The notes beneath the pieces are model-generated. The model ran no database searches, was not told the DNA's origin, and was given only the letters and a program-made list of their open reading frames with translations. A stretch of 64,000 bases of DNA from Alloprevotella sp. (lineage in GTDB: Bacteria > Bacillota > Clostridia > Oscillospirales > Oscillospiraceae): contig CAVEQW010000036.1 of the NCBI GenBank assembly GCA_963618155.1, positions 10,038 to 74,037 of the forward strand, in the 5' to 3' direction. Of the stretch, positions 2 through 7,299 are shown piece by piece. How positions within the stretch are numbered: position 1 is the first letter of the stretch; every line of letters begins with the position of its first letter. A program made the translations under genes and the position numbers.

Positions 2-1189
2 GTGAGCGGGATGGAGATGAAACGCTTTGCCGTGCTTGGCTATGGGACGGTCGGAAGATCCGTCTGCCGCGTATGGAGTGAATTTGAGCACGCACCGCTC
101 ATGCAGGGACCCATCCTCGTGCGCCGCGCGCATGAGCCGGACGAGTTCTCGGCCTATATGACCGAGCGCTTCGAGGACATCGAAAAAGACCCGAGCATCA
201 CAGTCGTGGCCGAGGTCATGGGCGGCACGGACGCCGCCTGGGAATACTCCCGCCGGGCGCTGCTCGCGGGGAAGAGCGTCGTGTCGTCGAACAAGGCGCT
301 CGCGGCGGAGCGCGGCGCGGAGCTCTGCGCTCTTGCGCACCGCATGGGCGTGAGCTACCGCTTTGAGGCGGCGGTCTGCGGCGGCATCCCGCTGCTCGCG
401 CCGCTGACCGACTCGCTCGGCGCGAACCGGGTGGACGAGCTCTGCGGCATATTCAACGGCACCACGAACTACATCCTCACGGCCATGCGCCGTGACGGGG
501 CGGCCTATGCGGACGCGCTGGCGCAGGCGCAGGCGCTCGGCTATGCCGAGGCCGACCCCACCGCCGACGTGGAGGGGCACGATGCCGGACGCAAAACGGC
601 GCTGCTCGGCTCGCTCGCCTTTGGGCGGCGTATCCGCTTCGACACCATGCACGTCGCCGGTATCCCATCGGTCACGCCGGAGGATATGGAGCTTGCCGAT
701 GCGCTCGGCTATGCCGTCAAGCTCCTCGGCCGGACAGGCCGCACGGCGGAGGGCATATACGCCTATGTCCAGCCGCAGCTCGTGCCGCACGACGCCCTGC
801 TCGCCTCCGTGGACGGCGTGATGAACGCCTGCCTCGTCCATGCCAGCGCCGCCGGTGAGATTCTGTTCTACGGCCCCGGTGCGGGCGGACGCCCCACGGC
901 GAGCGCCGTCTGCGCCGATATACTCGCGGCGGTGCGGCACCCCGGCGACTGCATGGAGCTTTCCGCCGAGCATACGCCGCTTTTGCCGGAGGCGCAGCTC
1001 GTCTCGCGCTGGTACGTCCGCGCGGAGGCAGAGCCGGACGCCCTGCTCGCGGCCTTTCCGACGGCGAAGCCGGTCTATGGCAGCGGCGGCAGCTGCGCCT
1101 TCATCACAGAGCCGTGCAGCCGGACGGCACTGGGCGAGGGTCTGCACGCGATACACGCCGGCCGCGCGTGGCGCGTTTGGGAAGCATGA
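2..1189 (+). CDS. hom: Homoserine dehydrogenase
   Basis: 395-aa ORF. It has an N-terminal Rossmann-type FAVLGYGTVGRSV motif and homoserine-DH-like core motifs (GIFNGTTNYIL, AEADPTADVEGHDAGRK). It lies directly upstream of aspartate kinase. The true start may be ATG at 11 or 17 rather than GTG at 2. Confidence 0.85.
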   Translation: MSGMEMKRFAVLGYGTVGRSVCRVWSEFEHAPLMQGPILVRRAHEPDEFSAYMTERFEDIEKDPSITVVAEVMGGTDAAWEYSRRALLAGKSVVSSNKALAAERGAELCALAHRMGVSYRFEAAVCGGIPLLAPLTDSLGANRVDELCGIFNGTTNYILTAMRRDGAAYADALAQAQALGYAEADPTADVEGHDAGRKTALLGSLAFGRRIRFDTMHVAGIPSVTPEDMELADALGYAVKLLGRTGRTAEGIYAYVQPQLVPHDALLASVDGVMNACLVHASAAGEILFYGPGAGGRPTASAVCADILAAVRHPGDCMELSAEHTPLLPEAQLVSRWYVRAEAEPDALLAAFPTAKPVYGSGGSCAFITEPCSRTALGEGLHAIHAGRAWRVWEA

Positions 1190-1245: not shown

Positions 1246-2454
1246 ATGCTGATCGTACAGAAATTCGGCGGCTCCTCCGTGGCGGATGCCGCCAGGATCA
1301 AAAATGTCGCCTCCATCATCGCCGAGACCTATCTGGCCGGAAACGAGCTTGTGGTCGTGCTCTCGGCTCAGGGCGACACCACGGACGAGCTTCTGGAAAA
1401 GGCCGCCGAGCTGAACGCTGCGCCCTCCCGACGGGAGCTTGATATGCTCCTCGCCACGGGGGAGCAGCAGTCCATCGCGCTGATGGCCATGTGTCTGGAG
1501 GCCATGGGGCTTCCGGTCATATCCCTGACCGGCTGGCAGGCCGGTATGCACACCGACGCCGCCTATGGCGACGCCCGCATCCGCCGCATCGACACCGAGC
1601 GGCTGCGCCGGGAGCTTGATATGCGGCGCATCGTGCTGGTGGCCGGCTTCCAGGGGCTCACCAAATTCGACGACGTTACCACCCTCGGCCGCGGCGGCTC
1701 GGATGCAACGGCCGTGGCGCTGGCGGCGGCGCTCCACGCCGACCGCTGCCAGATATTCACCGATGTCGAGGGCGTCTTTACCGCCGACCCGCGCAAGGTA
1801 CCGGCGGCGCGTAAGCTCGATGAGATAAGCTGCGACGAGATGATGGAGCTTGCGTCCATGGGGGCGCAGGTGCTCATGAATCGCTCCGTGCAGCTCGCCA
1901 AGCGCTACGGGGTGGAGCTGGAGGTGCTTTCCTCCACCGCCCGCAAGAGCGGAACTATGGTCAAGGAGGTCACAAAAGACATGGAGGAAATGAAGATCAC
2001 CGGCATTGCCAAGGACGAGAAGGTCGCCCGCATCACCGTGGAGGGACTGCCCGACACACCCGGCGCGGCGTTCCGCGTCTTCGGCGCGATCGCCCGCGAG
2101 GGCGTGAACGTGGACGTCATCATCCAGGCCAACGGCCGCGACGGACGCAACGATATGTCCTTCACCGTGGCGGAGGCCGACGCGGACCGGGCGCGGGAGG
2201 CCGCCATGAGCCGCCGCAGCACGCTCGGCTTCGACGACGTGTCCATCGACACGAGCATCGCCAAGGTCAGCGTCGTCGGCGCGGGCATGATGTCGAATTC
2301 TGCGATCGCGGCACTGGTGTTCGAGGCGCTCAACGACGAGAATATCAACATCCAGATGATCTCCACGAGCGAGATCAAGCTCTCCGTCATCATCGAGCAG
2401 GATAAGGCCGACCGCGCCGTCGCCGCCATCCACCGCAAGTTTTTTGAGAGCTGA
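1246..2454 (+). CDS. lysC: Aspartate kinase
   Basis: 402-aa ORF starting MLIVQKFGGSSVADAARIKNVA, the amino-acid kinase signature. It has C-terminal ACT-like repeats (KVSVVGAGM, ISTSEIKLSVII) and follows hom. Confidence 0.9.
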   Translation: MLIVQKFGGSSVADAARIKNVASIIAETYLAGNELVVVLSAQGDTTDELLEKAAELNAAPSRRELDMLLATGEQQSIALMAMCLEAMGLPVISLTGWQAGMHTDAAYGDARIRRIDTERLRRELDMRRIVLVAGFQGLTKFDDVTTLGRGGSDATAVALAAALHADRCQIFTDVEGVFTADPRKVPAARKLDEISCDEMMELASMGAQVLMNRSVQLAKRYGVELEVLSSTARKSGTMVKEVTKDMEEMKITGIAKDEKVARITVEGLPDTPGAAFRVFGAIAREGVNVDVIIQANGRDGRNDMSFTVAEADADRAREAAMSRRSTLGFDDVSIDTSIAKVSVVGAGMMSNSAIAALVFEALNDENINIQMISTSEIKLSVIIEQDKADRAVAAIHRKFFES

Positions 2455-2642
2455 CGATTTTGTAACTTTTTTAATTTCTCGACAAAATACAACATCTTGC
2501 GCAAAGCGTCCCGGCCTGACACAAATGGCTGGGACACTTGTGTTTTCAATGATTTTTTGTTGTTGACAAGAGATGACTCGTGTGTTACTTTGTTTCTATA
2601 TCGTAACTAAATTGTAACTTTTTCATTACGCGAGGTGTTTCC

Positions 2643-5183
2643 ATGAGTCAGTCAACCACTCTCTCGCCCGCGCTGACGGCGGCCCGGCTTGCCGCCATGA
2701 ACGGGGAGCAGATCGTGAAAATGGGGCGTGAGCTGCTCGCCCAGCTTGACCGCGACCCGGACGGCGTCCACGGCAATATATGGCCGGGCAACATCCACAT
2801 CGACGGGGACGGGAAGGCCGTGCTCGGCGAAGGCTCTGTCGCGCCCGTCTCCGCCCGCACGCCGGAGCAGGTCGAGTATATGGCGCCGGAGGCGTTCTGG
2901 GACAACGACTTCAGCCGCGCCGCCGACCTTTACAGCATCGCGCTCGTGATGTACACCGCTTACAACGGCGGCCGCCTCCCCTTCACCGACTCCGCCGAGC
3001 CGGACGATGCGGCGCGGGCGCAGGCGCTGCGCACCCGCATGAAGGGAAACGAGCTCGTTCTGCCGGAGGGCGTCAGCGAGGATGTCGGGGAAATACTGCG
3101 GCGCGAGCTTGCCTACAGTCCGGAGGGGCGCTACCTCACCGGCGAGTCCATGCTCCACGACCTGAGCGAGACGGACGAGGCGCTGCCCTCTGCCGCGCCG
3201 GACGATGAGCCGCCCAGCGATGCCGAGGCTGCCGCCTCTGCCGCCGCCACCGGTCTTGCAGGCGTGTCCGCCGTGGCCGAGCCCTCCGCGATGCCGCGTG
3301 AGGAGGCGCGTCCCATCGAGGCTGCCGCCGGCGTCTCTGCCAGCAGCATACTCATGGAGCAGGAGCTGCGCGCCATGGATGAGCCGAAGAAAAAGAAGAA
3401 AAAGCCCGCCAAGGCGTCTGCGGATACGACGCCGCTGGCCGCTATTTTTGCCGAGCCTGTCGCGGCGCAGAAGCAGGAGCCGAGGGCGGATGCCGCGCCG
3501 GACTTCACCCCCGGAGCCGATGACACGGTGATCCTGACGGCGGAGAAGGAGCCTGACAAGGGCGGTGAAGCGGGCGCTGCGGCGGAGAAAAAGACGCCGG
3601 CTGCCTCGGGTTCGAGCGGAGCGTCCAAGAAAAAGAAAAAGAACACAAACGCCAAAAACGGCGGCGGCAGTGCGCAGAAGCCCGCCGGAAAGCCCGCCGA
3701 TACCTCCAGGCCGGAGGATAAAAAGCCGGGCGACACGGTCGTTCTGACGGCCAAGCCGGAGCCCAAGGCGCAGGACAGGCCGGGGACTGCGGGGAACGCC
3801 GCGGCAAAGACGCCGCCCGCCACGGGCACATCCAAGCCAAAAACGGCCGGCGGCGGGAGCACAGCGGGACAGAAGCATCCCAACGCGCAGAAGCCCGCCG
3901 GGAAAAAGGCGGGCGCCGCGCCGCGCAGGAAAAACAGCGGCACGATCGTCGCCATCGGTGCGGGCGTGCTTGTGATCGCGGGGCTCGTCTGCGTCGCCGC
4001 CTACTCCCTCGGCGCGTTTGAAACAAAGCCAACGCCGCTCACCGCCGCGACCATCCCGCCGCAGGCCGTCCAGTCCACCGAGGAGCCGTCCACGCCGACG
4101 CCTGCTCCGACTGCGGCGGCATACAGCTTCACCGCCCGTGCGACCACCCTTGACTGGGATGAGCTGACGGACGCCGGGCTTGCCGTCCTCGATGGACAGG
4201 ACGCGCTTGACGCGGCCGTGGCCGCCGCCGAAAAGGCGGGGCTTGAGAGCCTCTGGATCGGCGCACGCTATCTCGATGCGGCCGATGCGCCGGACGGCGA
4301 GGCCGGCTGGTACTGGCTCGACGGGACGCAGCTTCCCGAAAACAGCAGCTTCTGGGCGGATGGCGAGCCCTCCGCAAGCACCGGCGGACGCCTGATGCTC
4401 CGCCGCGGTGCGGACGGGAGCTGGCGCTTCTATGCCGTCACGCAAGACCAGTTTGAGGACGGCGGCTTCACCGAGCTCGGCTATATCACGGACGGCAGCG
4501 GCATGATCGTCAAGGCCTCGCCCTCGCCGTCGCCCTCGCCGACCGCGAAGCCGACGCTGACGCCTGCGCCCACCGTCTCGCCGAATTCAAACAATCGCTA
4601 CATCTATGTTCCCACCGCCGCGCCGACCACGGCGCCGACTACGCAGCCGACCACGGCGCCGACCACGCAGCCGACCACGCAGCCGACCACCAAGCCGACG
4701 ACGCAGCCGACCACCCAGCCGGTGACGCCCTCGCCCAAGCCGGACGATAATTATATCGCCATTACCGAAAGCAAGACGTGGACGCAGTTCAAGGAGGAGG
4801 GCAAGACACTTGCCGAAGCCGCGACGCCGGAGAAGCATACGGCCATTGTCAAGTTCCTCGATGACTACAACAGCATGCACAGTGACGCGAAGCTTCTCAA
4901 CGTCTGGCTCGGTGCGCAGTATCTGGCTGCCGATGAGAGCAGCGACCGCTCCGCGGGCTGGTACTGGCTCGACGGTACGGCGCTGGCCACGACCGACGCC
5001 AGCTGGGCGACAGCGGAGGAAAGCGCCAAAACAACGGACTGCAAGCTCATGCTGCGCTATGTCGATAACGCGTGGAAATACTACGCCGTCACGGACAAGG
5101 AATTCACTGACGGGCTTGAAACGACCTATGCCAACAGCGGCGCACTCACCGTGACCGCGACCGAGACGACCACCGGCGAATGA
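2643..5183 (+). CDS. Membrane protein: kinase C-lobe-only pseudokinase, disordered K/P/A-rich linker, one TM helix, two cysteine-free C-type-lectin-like domains
   Basis: 846-aa ORF.
- The N-terminus aligns to the Ser/Thr kinase catalytic loop onward: HGNIWPGNIHIDGDG versus HRDxKPxN, GEG in place of DFG, YMAPE retained.
- No Gly-loop or VAIK lobe is present.
- One TM helix: IVAIGAGVLVIAGLVCVAAY.
- Two modules carry WIGARY...GWYWLDG...W..GEP and WLGAQY...GWYWLDG.
- A PTTQ-repeat linker separates the two modules. Confidence 0.6.
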   Translation: MSQSTTLSPALTAARLAAMNGEQIVKMGRELLAQLDRDPDGVHGNIWPGNIHIDGDGKAVLGEGSVAPVSARTPEQVEYMAPEAFWDNDFSRAADLYSIALVMYTAYNGGRLPFTDSAEPDDAARAQALRTRMKGNELVLPEGVSEDVGEILRRELAYSPEGRYLTGESMLHDLSETDEALPSAAPDDEPPSDAEAAASAAATGLAGVSAVAEPSAMPREEARPIEAAAGVSASSILMEQELRAMDEPKKKKKKPAKASADTTPLAAIFAEPVAAQKQEPRADAAPDFTPGADDTVILTAEKEPDKGGEAGAAAEKKTPAASGSSGASKKKKKNTNAKNGGGSAQKPAGKPADTSRPEDKKPGDTVVLTAKPEPKAQDRPGTAGNAAAKTPPATGTSKPKTAGGGSTAGQKHPNAQKPAGKKAGAAPRRKNSGTIVAIGAGVLVIAGLVCVAAYSLGAFETKPTPLTAATIPPQAVQSTEEPSTPTPAPTAAAYSFTARATTLDWDELTDAGLAVLDGQDALDAAVAAAEKAGLESLWIGARYLDAADAPDGEAGWYWLDGTQLPENSSFWADGEPSASTGGRLMLRRGADGSWRFYAVTQDQFEDGGFTELGYITDGSGMIVKASPSPSPSPTAKPTLTPAPTVSPNSNNRYIYVPTAAPTTAPTTQPTTAPTTQPTTQPTTKPTTQPTTQPVTPSPKPDDNYIAITESKTWTQFKEEGKTLAEAATPEKHTAIVKFLDDYNSMHSDAKLLNVWLGAQYLAADESSDRSAGWYWLDGTALATTDASWATAEESAKTTDCKLMLRYVDNAWKYYAVTDKEFTDGLETTYANSGALTVTATETTTGE
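4623..4721 (+). repeat. In-frame 12-nt tandem repeat (CCGACCACGCAG-like) encoding (PTTA/PTTQ/PTTK)n linker
   Basis: About eight consecutive near-identical 12-nt units are visible in the DNA. They translate to PTTAPTTQPTTAPTTQPTTQPTTKPTTQPTTQP. Confidence 0.85.
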
Positions 5184-5304: not shown

Positions 5305-6567
5305 ATGAAAAAATATCTCGCATTTATCCTTTGCGCCGTGCTGCTGGCATCACTTCTCGCCGGCTGCGGCAAAAGCAAGATCGAGGAATACGACGCCGAG
5401 ACGGTCACCACCGCCGAGGAAACGGCGGAGCAGGCGCGCGAGGCCAGCGACCCCGCCAACTACTACCTCGCCGACGCCGTCGTATGCGCGGTGGACGGGC
5501 TTGAATGCAGCTGGGAGGAATATTACTACTGGCTGAACAACTGCCGTCAGAGCGTGGAGAGCCAGTGCGGCGAGATCAGCGACTGGGACGCGCTCAACAG
5601 CTACTACACCAACATGAGCAACGAGCAGGTCGTGCTCACGCTGGCGCAGAACGATATGTTGTATTACCAGACCGTTCTTGTCCAGACGGACGAGGCCGGG
5701 ATCACCCCCACGGACGAGGAGGCCGAGCAGGAGCTGCTTCTCGAGGCCGACCAGATGTTCGGCGACGGGGACGGCGAGCTCACCGAGGAGGAGCGTGCCT
5801 CGCTCGACGAGTATCTCGCGGAGGCGGGCATCAGCTATGCGCTCCAGCTGCGGCTTGCGAAGTATAAGCTCGCGGAGCAGACGCTGTTTGAGTATACCAC
5901 CGCCGATGTAGATGACGAGCAGGTTGTCGAATGGGCGGCGGAGCAGGGCTATATGGCGGCGAAGCATATCCTGCTGCTGACCGTGGACGCGACGACCCGC
6001 GAGGCGCTGGATGAGGCGACCGTGACGGAAAAGAAGGAGACGGCGGACTATCTGCTCGCCGAGCTGACCGAGGCAAAGGCTGCCGAGGAAAAGGCCATTG
6101 CCGCCGCGCCGCAGACCGAACAGACGACTGCGGAAACGGACGAGGCCTCCGGCGAGCTGCTCGACCCCGCCGCGCAGGCGCGCGCCGATTTTGAGGCGTA
6201 TTTCGACAAGCTCATGAACGAATACTCCGAGGACACCGGCCTTGAAAGCCATCCGAACGGCTATGTCTTCCTGCCCGGGGAGATGGTCGAGGCGTTTGAG
6301 ACGGCCGTCCAGTCGCTGGACGAGGATCTCGGCCTCAGCGGCGTGGTCGAGAGCGAATACGGCTACCACATCATCCTGCGCCGAGAGCTCGACCCGGACG
6401 TGGTGCTGGGGCAGAACCGCTACGGCTATGACGTGACGCTGCGCAGCTATGTCCTCAACAACATCTTCAGCGAGGCGAACAGCGCCGCCGCCGAGGAAGT
6501 GACCGTCGAATGGACGGAGGGCTTCGACACCATCGACCTCGCCCAGCTCTTCGCCACGCTCGGCTGA
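5305..6567 (+). CDS. PrsA-like lipoprotein, parvulin-type peptidyl-prolyl isomerase / foldase
   Basis: Lipobox signal MKKYLAFILCAVLLASLLAGCGK. It has a long acidic chaperone-like region and a C-terminal parvulin-like motif (ESEYGYHIILR). A good RBS (gaggaaaggg) is present. Confidence 0.75.
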   Translation: MKKYLAFILCAVLLASLLAGCGKSKIEEYDAETVTTAEETAEQAREASDPANYYLADAVVCAVDGLECSWEEYYYWLNNCRQSVESQCGEISDWDALNSYYTNMSNEQVVLTLAQNDMLYYQTVLVQTDEAGITPTDEEAEQELLLEADQMFGDGDGELTEEERASLDEYLAEAGISYALQLRLAKYKLAEQTLFEYTTADVDDEQVVEWAAEQGYMAAKHILLLTVDATTREALDEATVTEKKETADYLLAELTEAKAAEEKAIAAAPQTEQTTAETDEASGELLDPAAQARADFEAYFDKLMNEYSEDTGLESHPNGYVFLPGEMVEAFETAVQSLDEDLGLSGVVESEYGYHIILRRELDPDVVLGQNRYGYDVTLRSYVLNNIFSEANSAAAEEVTVEWTEGFDTIDLAQLFATLG

Positions 6568-6720: not shown

Positions 6721-6805
6721 TGGTGGGGGAAGGTGGATTCGAACCACCGAAGGCATTGCCAGCAGATTTACAGTCTGTCCCCTTTGGCCACTCGGGAATT
6801 CCCCC
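6721..6805 (-). tRNA. tRNA-Tyr (anticodon GTA), class II with long variable arm, encoded CCA
   Basis: Reverse complement reads GGGGGAATTCCCGAGTGGCCAAAGGGGACAGACTGTAAATCTGCTGGCAATGCCTTCGGTGGTTCGAATCCACCTTCCCCCACCA. The 7-bp acceptor stem is GGGGGAA/TTCCCCC. The anticodon loop is CTGTAAA and the T-arm is GGTGG-TTCGAAT-CCACC. Confidence 0.9.
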
Positions 6806-6824
6806 ATATGGAATTGTCAGGCGG

Positions 6825-6899
6825 TGGAGCTGGTGAAGGGAATCGAACCCCCAACCTACGCATTACAAGTGCGTTGCTCTACCGTTGAGCTACACCAGC
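6825..6899 (-). tRNA. tRNA-Thr (anticodon TGT), encoded CCA
   Basis: Reverse complement reads GCTGGTGTAGCTCAACGGTAGAGCAACGCACTTGTAATGCGTAGGTTGGGGGTTCGATTCCCTTCACCAGCTCCA. The acceptor stem is GCTGGTG/CACCAGC and the D-arm is GCTC/GAGC. The anticodon stem is ACGCA/TGCGT with loop CTTGTAA. Confidence 0.88.
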
Positions 6900-6966: not shown

Positions 6967-7299
6967 ATGAAAAATACCATCACCCTGCCCGCCGGGGATC
7001 CGACGCGGGCGATCTTCACCATGGACGGCGACTATATGCTGCCGTACATCCGCCCCGGCGAGGCCGTCCGCGTGAGCTTTGAGCGCCCGGAGACGGGCGA
7101 GTGCGGCCTCTTCTCCGCCGGGGGCGAGGCGCTCGTCCGCCAGTACTGCGAGGACGGCCTCGGCAACATATATCTCTTCGCGCTCAACCGCGAGCGGCGG
7201 GAGCTTGACCGCTGCTTCCCCGGCGGGCGCGGTCTCGTCTGCCTCGGCCGGCTGCTGCTCGACCGGCGCGCCCCGCTCCCGCTCGATCTCAGGGGCTAG
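6967..7299 (+). CDS. Stand-alone S24 (LexA/UmuD C-terminal)-like domain protein, nucleophile apparently replaced
   Basis: 110-aa ORF. MDGDYMLPYIRPGEAVRV aligns to the GDSM-x-P...GD motif of S24 peptidases, but with Tyr in place of the catalytic Ser. There is no HTH domain. It converges on and overlaps the mutS stop by 4 nt. Confidence 0.45.
   Translation: MKNTITLPAGDPTRAIFTMDGDYMLPYIRPGEAVRVSFERPETGECGLFSAGGEALVRQYCEDGLGNIYLFALNRERRELDRCFPGGRGLVCLGRLLLDRRAPLPLDLRG

Follow-up and report, generated by a model that had tools for sequence, protein, structure and literature searches.

A membrane-tethered kinase C-lobe joined to C-type-lectin-fold modules in gut Oscillospiraceae: a candidate non-catalytic docking receptor or scaffold

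Stand-alone kinase lobes and bacterial pseudokinases

A protein kinase carboxy-terminal lobe (C-lobe) that stands alone, without catalysis, and serves as an interaction module has been described as the KIND domain. As summarised in PMC3415841, KIND is known from the metazoan proteins Spir, PTPN13/PTP-BL and very-KIND, is cytosolic, has lost its own alpha-G helix, and is bound by its partner at the alpha-G position. Here we analyse a gene from a 64,000-nucleotide stretch of Alloprevotella sp. DNA, placed by GTDB in the Oscillospiraceae (assembly GCA_963618155.1, contig CAVEQW010000036.1, positions 10,038 to 74,037 of the forward strand; hereafter the window). Its product is predicted to join a C-lobe that lacks the amino-terminal lobe (N-lobe) to a membrane helix and to two extracellular modules with the C-type lectin fold. 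We propose that the gene encodes a non-catalytic, single-pass membrane docking receptor or scaffold, a reading to which we give a probability of roughly 0.55. The two domains are alike in being stand-alone C-lobes with neither N-lobe nor catalysis, and they differ in that the domain reported here is bacterial, membrane-tethered and provided with a highly conserved alpha-G. The protein gave no match to Pfam KIND at E <= 1, and the domain is best read as a functional analogue of KIND, not as a member of that family by sequence; its descent from clostridial Hanks kinases is clear, and its origin is thus independent.

Two other kinds of receptor invite comparison. The PASTA kinases (PrkC, PknB, StkP and Stk1; NCBIfam NF033483) share with the present protein a cytoplasmic kinase fold, a juxtamembrane linker, one transmembrane (TM) helix and repeated extracellular binding modules of glycan type. 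The present protein differs from them in having neither N-lobe nor catalytic residues and in its C-type-lectin-like ectodomain, and no PASTA repeat was matched in it by Pfam. Plant lectin receptor kinases likewise join an ectodomain of lectin type, via one TM helix, to a kinase fold in the cytoplasm, but their kinase is complete; the similarity to them is one of domain combination, an analogy and not whole-protein homology.

Catalytically dead relatives of the Hanks kinases, several of them membrane-anchored, have also been described in bacteria, and in these respects they resemble the protein studied here. They include the families ActPs1-3 (with MviN), GLW, CP1, DYD and DLHK, all of which are bilobal (PMC12599244; bioRxiv 10.1101/2025.01.12.632604), and the bilobal pseudokinase EssB/YukC of type VIIb secretion (PMC3526858). 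Members of GLW, furthermore, have a Gly/Trp-containing motif in place of the HRD region and a C-terminal TM helix. However, the described families retain the N-lobe, and none has been reported with a lectin ectodomain (PMC12599244; bioRxiv 10.1101/2025.01.12.632604). A first, sequence-only reading of the window had held the architecture of the present protein to be undescribed. Our own search of the literature likewise turned up neither a bacterial kinase module without an N-lobe nor this architecture, and the two 2025 surveys just cited contain bilobal pseudokinases only.

A half-kinase domain and the family it defines

The gene is an intact open reading frame (ORF) on the plus strand, 2643..5183, of 846 amino acids (aa), as given by the ORF list and its translation. 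The protein starts at the hinge/alpha-D boundary of a kinase, both in the alignment to full-length relatives and in the AlphaFold2 model. The isolated N-terminal piece matched the Pfam models Pkinase and PK_Tyr_Ser-Thr (E 2e-6) over profile positions ~161-260 of 263 only, with 24.3-27.9 bits against a cut-off of 31.7 for the former and 24.2-27.8 bits against a cut-off of 23.1 for the latter; scores around the cut-off are as expected for half a domain. The PASTA-kinase model NF033483 matched partially (E 3.8e-9, 36 bits, cut-off 450), and the best sequence match among solved structures was PknB of Mycobacterium tuberculosis (E 1e-7), with query residues 55-186 aligned on chain residues 161-288. 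AlphaFold2 modelled residues 1-185, from an input alignment of 13 family sequences, with a mean predicted local distance difference test (pLDDT) of 91.3 and a predicted template modelling score (pTM) of 0.89. Foldseek comparison of this model with the PDB returned protein kinases exclusively, PknB among the best, with template modelling scores of ~0.7 by query and ~0.5 by target, the values of half a kinase. On the strength of the model we take the C-lobe to be a real folded domain.

Of the features that define a Hanks kinase, those of the N-lobe (Gly-rich loop, VAIK Lys and alpha-C Glu) are absent from this protein; the core of the C-lobe is retained, with APE, the alpha-F Asp D95 and the alpha-H/I Arg R163 invariant or near-invariant. 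The catalytically dead, N-lobe-less kinase domain of the sequence-only reading is borne out: HGN replaces HRD, W47 stands for the catalytic-loop Lys, GEG occupies the DFG position, APE is kept, and the model starts at the hinge. Phosphotransfer by this protein can be excluded on its residues, because it has no N-lobe, no catalytic Asp, no catalytic Lys and no metal-binding Asp.

The absent N-lobe, and nothing more, would be accounted for by a split kinase in which a separate gene supplies the N-lobe and restores activity in trans. We rejected this explanation and consider it extremely improbable. Searched with the Pkinase profile, the genome (1.8 Mb, 97.7% complete) gave two matches, a complete, full-length PASTA kinase PrkC and the present C-lobe, and no separate N-lobe gene; moreover, the C-lobe itself lacks the catalytic Asp, the Lys of the catalytic loop and the Asp of DFG, and a supplied N-lobe could not restore the chemistry. 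Partial matches to NCBIfam and PADLOC models (E 1e-8 to 3e-12) would, for their part, fit a component of an anti-phage defence system, a kinase like those of PD-T4-6, MADS (Mad6) or BREX (PglW). These matches cover the generic C-lobe only and fall far under the curated cut-offs (e.g. 33 bits where 460 are required), the gene lies among housekeeping genes in hom-lysC synteny, and it belongs, as a single copy passed on vertically, to the core genes of its genus. This candidate was rejected as generic C-lobe similarity in a housekeeping context, and we see next to no chance that it is right.

Nor is there room upstream for a longer kinase. The stop-to-stop frame has 858 codons, which leaves 12 codons open above the ATG before an in-frame stop, and a GAGGTG ribosome-binding site (2632-2637) lies 5 nt ahead of the ATG. 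A frameshift or a missed N-lobe was rejected on the ground that only these 12 codons are open. The upstream genes are those of homoserine dehydrogenase (hom, 2..1189) and aspartate kinase (lysC, 1246..2454), and the earlier claim that the 188-nt gap cannot supply an N-lobe proved correct, with the in-frame stop inside the gap and lysC before it. At the ~45 Oscillospiraceae loci with a recognised HG.IWP motif, a stop precedes the motif by 42-97 codons, the exception being the relative L020; a full kinase needs ~130 or more codons upstream of this motif. The long upstream frame of L020 was itself tried as an N-lobe and rejected, since it is lysC in another reading frame.

The same truncated form defines a family. 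The 15 relatives retrieved by a word-indexed search, 733-925 aa long, all share one start point. A profile of the domain, run against 1.84 billion cluster representatives, retrieved 119 clusters at E <= 1e-30, and the family exceeds 100 clusters at 50% identity. In 113 of 160 collected proteins the domain is N-terminal, with no space for an N-lobe; three members with extra N-terminal residues have acidic low-complexity tails and no N-lobes. Nearly all members of at least 400 aa have one TM helix after the C-lobe. Lectin_C is matched by 43 of 71 family representatives (best 2e-12) and bacterial SH3_3 by 24, and the usual architecture is a C-lobe, a TM helix, an optional SH3b domain and a C-type lectin domain. 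A maximum-likelihood tree built from 188 C-lobe segments places 115 of the 117 domains without an N-lobe in a single clade with 118 members (support 0.86), a sign that the family arose once and then diversified. The family lacks a dedicated Pfam or NCBIfam model and is unnamed in the source databases.

The HGGIWPGN form of the catalytic loop is found elsewhere too. Two full-length, bilobal membrane proteins from metagenome-assembled genomes of Myxococcota (L066) and Deltaproteobacteria (L067) have this same loop, with DFG kept and APE lost, and score 21-25 bits against the family profile over half the domain, too little for them to be placed in a tree. The shared loop looks convergent, or the mark of a very distant relationship, and these two proteins may belong to the published GLW family.

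Within the genus the gene is present in exactly one copy in 22 of 24 species genomes (E <= 1e-68). Within its GTDB family, 10 further genera yielded no comparable copy at that threshold, and in a wider sample of the order even a weak match occurred in just three of 200 genomes. A contig scan gave 47 loci in metagenome-assembled genomes of Oscillospiraceae or Clostridia, recovered from gut or rumen samples of human, rabbit, deer, buffalo and other origin. Pairwise ratios of nonsynonymous to synonymous substitution rates (dN/dS) against four orthologs were 0.17-0.47 in the folded parts, and in the closest orthologs, L020 and L022, the C-lobe is the best-conserved segment, with 74-79% identity against 44-46% for the linker. 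These comparisons indicate an architecture that is stable and under purifying selection, not in decay, and the pseudokinase scaffold of the sequence-only reading holds.

Loss of the N-lobe and of all the catalytic residues could also mark a decaying, 5'-truncated pseudogene of a transmembrane kinase, and the same early reading had left decay or stability to be settled by orthologs. Conservation, monophyly and dN/dS led us to reject decay, which we now regard as having a vanishingly small probability. The 846-codon frame is intact and the gene is kept as a single copy in 22 of 24 species genomes of the genus, ~45 loci and 113 proteins are truncated at one and the same point, monophyly holds for the clade without an N-lobe, dN/dS stays below 0.5, and the fold is predicted with high confidence.

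The residues that the family has kept were identified by comparing 120 family domains with 42 active relatives. The HRD-Arg position is Gly in 96% of the family domains. At the catalytic-Asp position the family consensus is Gly or Asn, never Asp, whereas all 42 active relatives have Asp; Trp is the commonest replacement (51%) of the catalytic-loop Lys, which all of those relatives keep, and Arg stands in the next commonest motif; and the DFG position is unconserved, against 90% for its D and 81% for its F in the active relatives. APE and the alpha-F Asp, both at 100%, are retained together with the PF motif and R163. The P+1-loop residue E78 is present in 96% of the family and in 19% of the active kinases, F85 (98%) and W86 (97%) are unconserved in the active relatives, and alpha-G has R125, A128, L129, R132 and M133 at 88-100% (R125 92%, R132 100%, M133 93%). 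By this comparison, the surface made of the P+1 loop, alpha-EF and alpha-G, with which kinases grip their substrates and partners, has been kept and is more tightly constrained than in active kinases. Kinases are known to use alpha-G for docking. Because this surface is conserved while catalysis has been lost, the stand-alone C-lobe would act inside the cell as a protein-docking module. Position 73 is Ser or Thr in 68% of the family and lies at most one residue from the canonical activation-loop phosphosite, so that T73 could be a phospho-acceptor.

The closest sequences outside the family are five clostridial sister proteins (P0018, P0034, P0053, P0084 and P0089), in which an active Hanks kinase is followed by one to three catalytically dead C-lobe-only modules. 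Because these proteins pair both in cis, they suggest that C-lobe-only modules work together with an active kinase. We know of no earlier description of such a tandem of a kinase and half-kinases. The domain itself descends from clostridial Hanks kinases of a clade other than that of PrkC from its own genome, and its identity to the C-lobe of that PrkC is 26%.

Linker, membrane helix and lectin-fold modules

Behind the C-lobe comes a basic linker, of which aa 186-430 contain 22% Ala, 13% Lys and 11% Pro, with runs of six Lys at 249-254 and five at 329-333. From this composition we infer that it is disordered. It varies in length and sequence among the aligned orthologs, except for a conserved island, RPIEAAAGVSASSILMEQEL (nt 3309-3368), and its dN/dS is 0.36-0.48. 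The SETDEALPS motif between the C-lobe and the linker (Table 1) was not found in the wider family outside the subfamily. Composition and a hydropathy scan confirmed the ~250-aa Lys/Pro/Ala-rich segment with Lys patches, followed by one TM helix, that had been read from the sequence; an orientation with the N-terminus inside is predicted by the positive-inside rule. Just before the TM helix (~aa 415-430) most family members, distant ones too, keep a juxtamembrane motif, (K/R)(Q/K)YTV(Q/E)KDFE, which could be a phosphosite or a binding motif. It is degenerate in the present protein, where it reads QKHPNAQKPAGKK.

For the ectodomain, an AlphaFold2 model of residues 481-846 consists of two separately folded modules (pLDDT ~80-96) with an unstructured linker between them (pLDDT <50). 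All of the top 50 Foldseek matches of the lectin modules are C-type lectin domains (MCL/CLEC4D, Mincle and carbohydrate-recognition domain 4, CRD4, of the mannose receptor), with a best E of 2e-4 and template modelling scores to target of 0.53-0.63. A profile of 19 modules run against solved structures found C-type lectin proteins exclusively, CLEC4D at 7.8e-7 and receptors with multiple C-type-lectin-like domains at values down to 5.6e-13. The kinase and lectin folds anticipated for this protein were both recovered by profile searches well above chance (PknB at one end, the C-type lectin proteins at the other), and the AlphaFold2 models agree in giving a confident kinase C-lobe and two modules of C-type lectin fold. 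Module 2 has an E of 3.6e-4 to Pfam Lectin_C, just under the cut-off, and in hhalign the modules of this protein gave 99.3% (E 1.4e-20) against the canonical ones found in the family. Five positions, four Trp and one Gly, never vary among the aligned lectin-like modules, which in the genome occur in this gene only.

With the C-type lectin superfamily (PF00059; CLEC4D/MCL, Mincle, mannose-receptor CRD4) these modules have in common the fold and the landmarks WIGL, WxWxDG and W..GEP. They differ from it in having no disulfide pairs and no WND, and in the change of EPN to EPS in module 1 or EES in module 2. Module 1 keeps EPS, has no Glu-Asn and reads WRF; module 2 has EES and WKY; WND is in neither. 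The whole protein contains two Cys, C800 in module 2 and C450 in the TM helix, from which no canonical disulfide can be formed in the ectodomain. Two lectin-like ectodomains free of cysteine had been proposed: both modules do have the C-type lectin fold, and C800 makes the second not strictly cysteine-free. Similarly, the W..GEP motif ascribed to both is present in module 1 as GEPS and becomes AEES in module 2. The proteins of the distant subgroup with HGG[VI][WR]P[GD]N terminate in a lectin domain of canonical appearance: 33 of 41 combine EPS with an E-N/D further downstream and WxYND, at 0-6 cysteines, and P0058 and P0072 are examples of canonical EPS/WxYND members.

Canonical Ca2+-dependent sugar binding is unlikely here, because the Ca2+/sugar residues and the disulfide cysteines have been lost, and the carbohydrate- or cell-wall-binding lectin-type sensors of the sequence-only reading are consequently not supported as they were written. 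Outside the cell, the two modules on their Pro/Thr-rich stalks may instead bind an envelope or environmental ligand, and they would do so via some other surface, given this loss. The PTTQ repeat noted early on between the modules is encoded by a 12-nt tandem array at 4614-4721, which specifies PTTQ/PTTA repeats and makes up part of the linker sequence (Tandem Repeats Finder: 8.3 copies, 82% matches; alternatively 36 nt x 3). Because the length of the inter-module linker differs among orthologs, module spacing probably varies by slippage.

Long Pro/Thr stalks and a slippage-prone repeat array are also what a surface adhesin or wall-associated binder would have. In such a protein the lectin-like modules would do the work, on host, dietary or microbial surfaces, and the C-lobe would be an inert anchor. 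The variation in number and type of ectodomains within the family (lectin modules number between one and three, and SH3b repeats can be numerous), the failure to find conserved signalling neighbours at ~45 loci, and a moderate evolutionary rate, typical of surface proteins, are in agreement with this. However, the best-conserved part of the protein is the C-lobe, by the identities given above for L020 and L022, and it carries family-specific, near-invariant surface residues kept across >100 clusters; an inert anchor needs no folded domain of 175 aa with a constrained docking face. We consider an adhesin unlikely and retain the docking receptor or scaffold as the preferred reading.

Table 1. 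Features of the gene and its upstream spacer, in positions of the window
Feature	Position	Strand	Details
Whole gene	2643..5183	+	846-aa single-pass membrane protein, predicted N-terminus inside and C-terminus outside; same layout in orthologs of 733-925 aa
AT-rich spacer between lysC and the gene	2455..2642	+	188 nt; GAGGTG ribosome-binding site and possible own promoter
Kinase C-lobe-only domain, aa 1-175	2643..3167	+	from hinge/alpha-D: alpha-E, dead catalytic loop, short activation segment, APE, alpha-F to alpha-I
Catalytic-loop remnant H43-G44-N45-I-W47-P-G-N50	2769..2792	+	replaces HRDxKPxN; His and Asn alone left
GEG at the DFG position, G62-E63-G64	2826..2834	+	metal-binding Asp gone
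End of activation segment and P+1 loop, T73-P-E-Q-V-E78-Y-M-A-P-E83	2859..2891	+	includes APE (A81-P82-E83)
F85-W86, right after APE (alpha-EF helix)	2895..2900	+	family-specific
Alpha-G motif R125-x-x-A-L-R-x-R-M-K-G135	3015..3047	+	helix 122-133 in the model
SETDEALPS motif, directly after the domain	3165..3191	+	T177, E179, L181 and P182 invariant in 14 subfamily members
Ala/Lys/Pro-rich low-complexity cytoplasmic linker, aa 184-433	3192..3941	+	net basic
Single TM helix, aa ~434-459	3942..4019	+	hydropathy scan; basic stretch PRRKNSG ahead
C-type-lectin-like module 1, aa 494-621	4122..4505	+	WIGA, GWYWLDG, WADGEPS, WRF; zero Cys; pLDDT ~80-87
Pro/Thr/Ser-rich inter-module linker, aa 622-702	4506..4748	+	length differs among orthologs; pLDDT <50
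C-type-lectin-like module 2, aa 703-838	4749..5156	+	WLGA, GWYWLDG, WATAEES, C800, WKY; pLDDT 88-96

Candidate partners, genomic setting and meaning

The likeliest partners of the C-lobe would be PrkC, which is the only complete Hanks kinase of the genome, the PP2C phosphatase that goes with it, or the substrates of either; the two enzymes form the genome's single obvious kinase/phosphatase pair. The half-kinase may, furthermore, be phosphorylated in trans, at T73 or in the long basic linker. The prkC gene lies within the standard fmt-rsmB-rlmN-PP2C-prkC-rsgA operon, and PASTA repeats were detected in its product. The PP2C gene lies at L070:5472-6221. In the catalytic loop of this PrkC (contig C49, L070:6193-7986) HMD replaces HRD (HMDIKPQN), and the catalytic Asp is retained. 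A more specific arrangement can be imagined, in which the protein is the ligand-binding, non-catalytic half of a two-protein receptor, its C-lobe pairing in trans and front to front via alpha-G with the kinase domain of PrkC and its ectodomain gating or localising PrkC signalling; we offer this only as a doubtful extension.

A single PrkC/PP2C pair would also suit a decoy or pseudosubstrate regulator, a C-lobe that mimics the trans-autophosphorylation partner and titrates PrkC or the phosphatase, and that damps or localises signalling with no relay of an outside signal. Retention of the activation-segment remnant, with Ser/Thr at position 73 in the proportion given above, the KQYTVQKDFE-type juxtamembrane motif, present in the majority of the inspected orthologs and family members, and the sister proteins with C-lobe-only modules in cis with an active kinase are all in its favour. 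On the other hand, the identity to the C-lobe of the cell's own PrkC is just 26%, descent is from a different clade of clostridial kinases, and the juxtamembrane motif is degenerate in this very protein. A decoy strikes us as distinctly unlikely.

Several observations count against a docking receptor or scaffold. The dN/dS values of 0.2-0.45 correspond to moderate, not strong, constraint; Ser/Thr occupies position 73 in just 68% of the family; and the alpha-G motif was partly inherited from the parental active kinases, so that its conservation may come from folding and not from docking. With the canonical ligand site gone, the word receptor may overstate a purely structural surface protein. 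Finally, no conserved signalling neighbour was found in ~45 loci, although antisense frames in the high-GC DNA confused greedy ORF calling and weak associations could have been missed.

As to the setting of the gene, hom-lysC synteny upstream extends over 15-17 loci, to ~50% domain identity. The spacer behind lysC holds a possible promoter of its own, TTGACA at 2563-2568 with an extended -10, TGtTACTTT, at 2583-2591; this site was not called by a consensus promoter scan at its threshold. In L020 (L020:5780-6000) the spacer is near-identical base for base, including repeated TTGTAAC(T/C) words and TTGACA, despite 79% identity of the protein domain, and such conservation suggests a conserved promoter or operator. 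The downstream gene (5305-6567, plus strand) encodes a lipoprotein with a PpiC-type peptidyl-prolyl isomerase domain, a PrsA-like foldase, and in at least nine related loci an HtrA-type protease is found downstream instead; both are extracytoplasmic protein-quality-control factors. Other neighbours across the ~45 loci are amylase, cysS, a MATE pump, cysE and flavoproteins. Further along the window are genes for tRNA-Tyr (GTA) and tRNA-Thr (TGT) on the minus strand (6721-6899), between the foldase gene and a 110-aa ORF (6967-7299, plus strand) that converges on mutS and has no Pfam match at E <= 1e-4.

The cataloguing of bacterial pseudokinases is recent. Every described family of them is bilobal, and here gut Oscillospiraceae keep a bare, membrane-tethered C-lobe, in more than 100 clusters, nearly always in combination with domains that bind at the cell surface (C-type lectin, SH3b). 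The parallel with the metazoan KIND supports the kinase C-lobe as an autonomous protein-interaction unit. If the two-protein receptor with PrkC were correct, it would be the first prokaryotic half-domain of KIND type in transmembrane signalling, evolved independently of that module. The occurrence of canonical-looking and degenerate C-type lectins within one family offers a natural series for the gut ligands of these little-studied bacterial lectin domains. With its single PASTA kinase/phosphatase pair, the organism would furthermore be a tractable system for asking how non-catalytic kinase remnants plug into the Ser/Thr signalling of the Gram-positive envelope.

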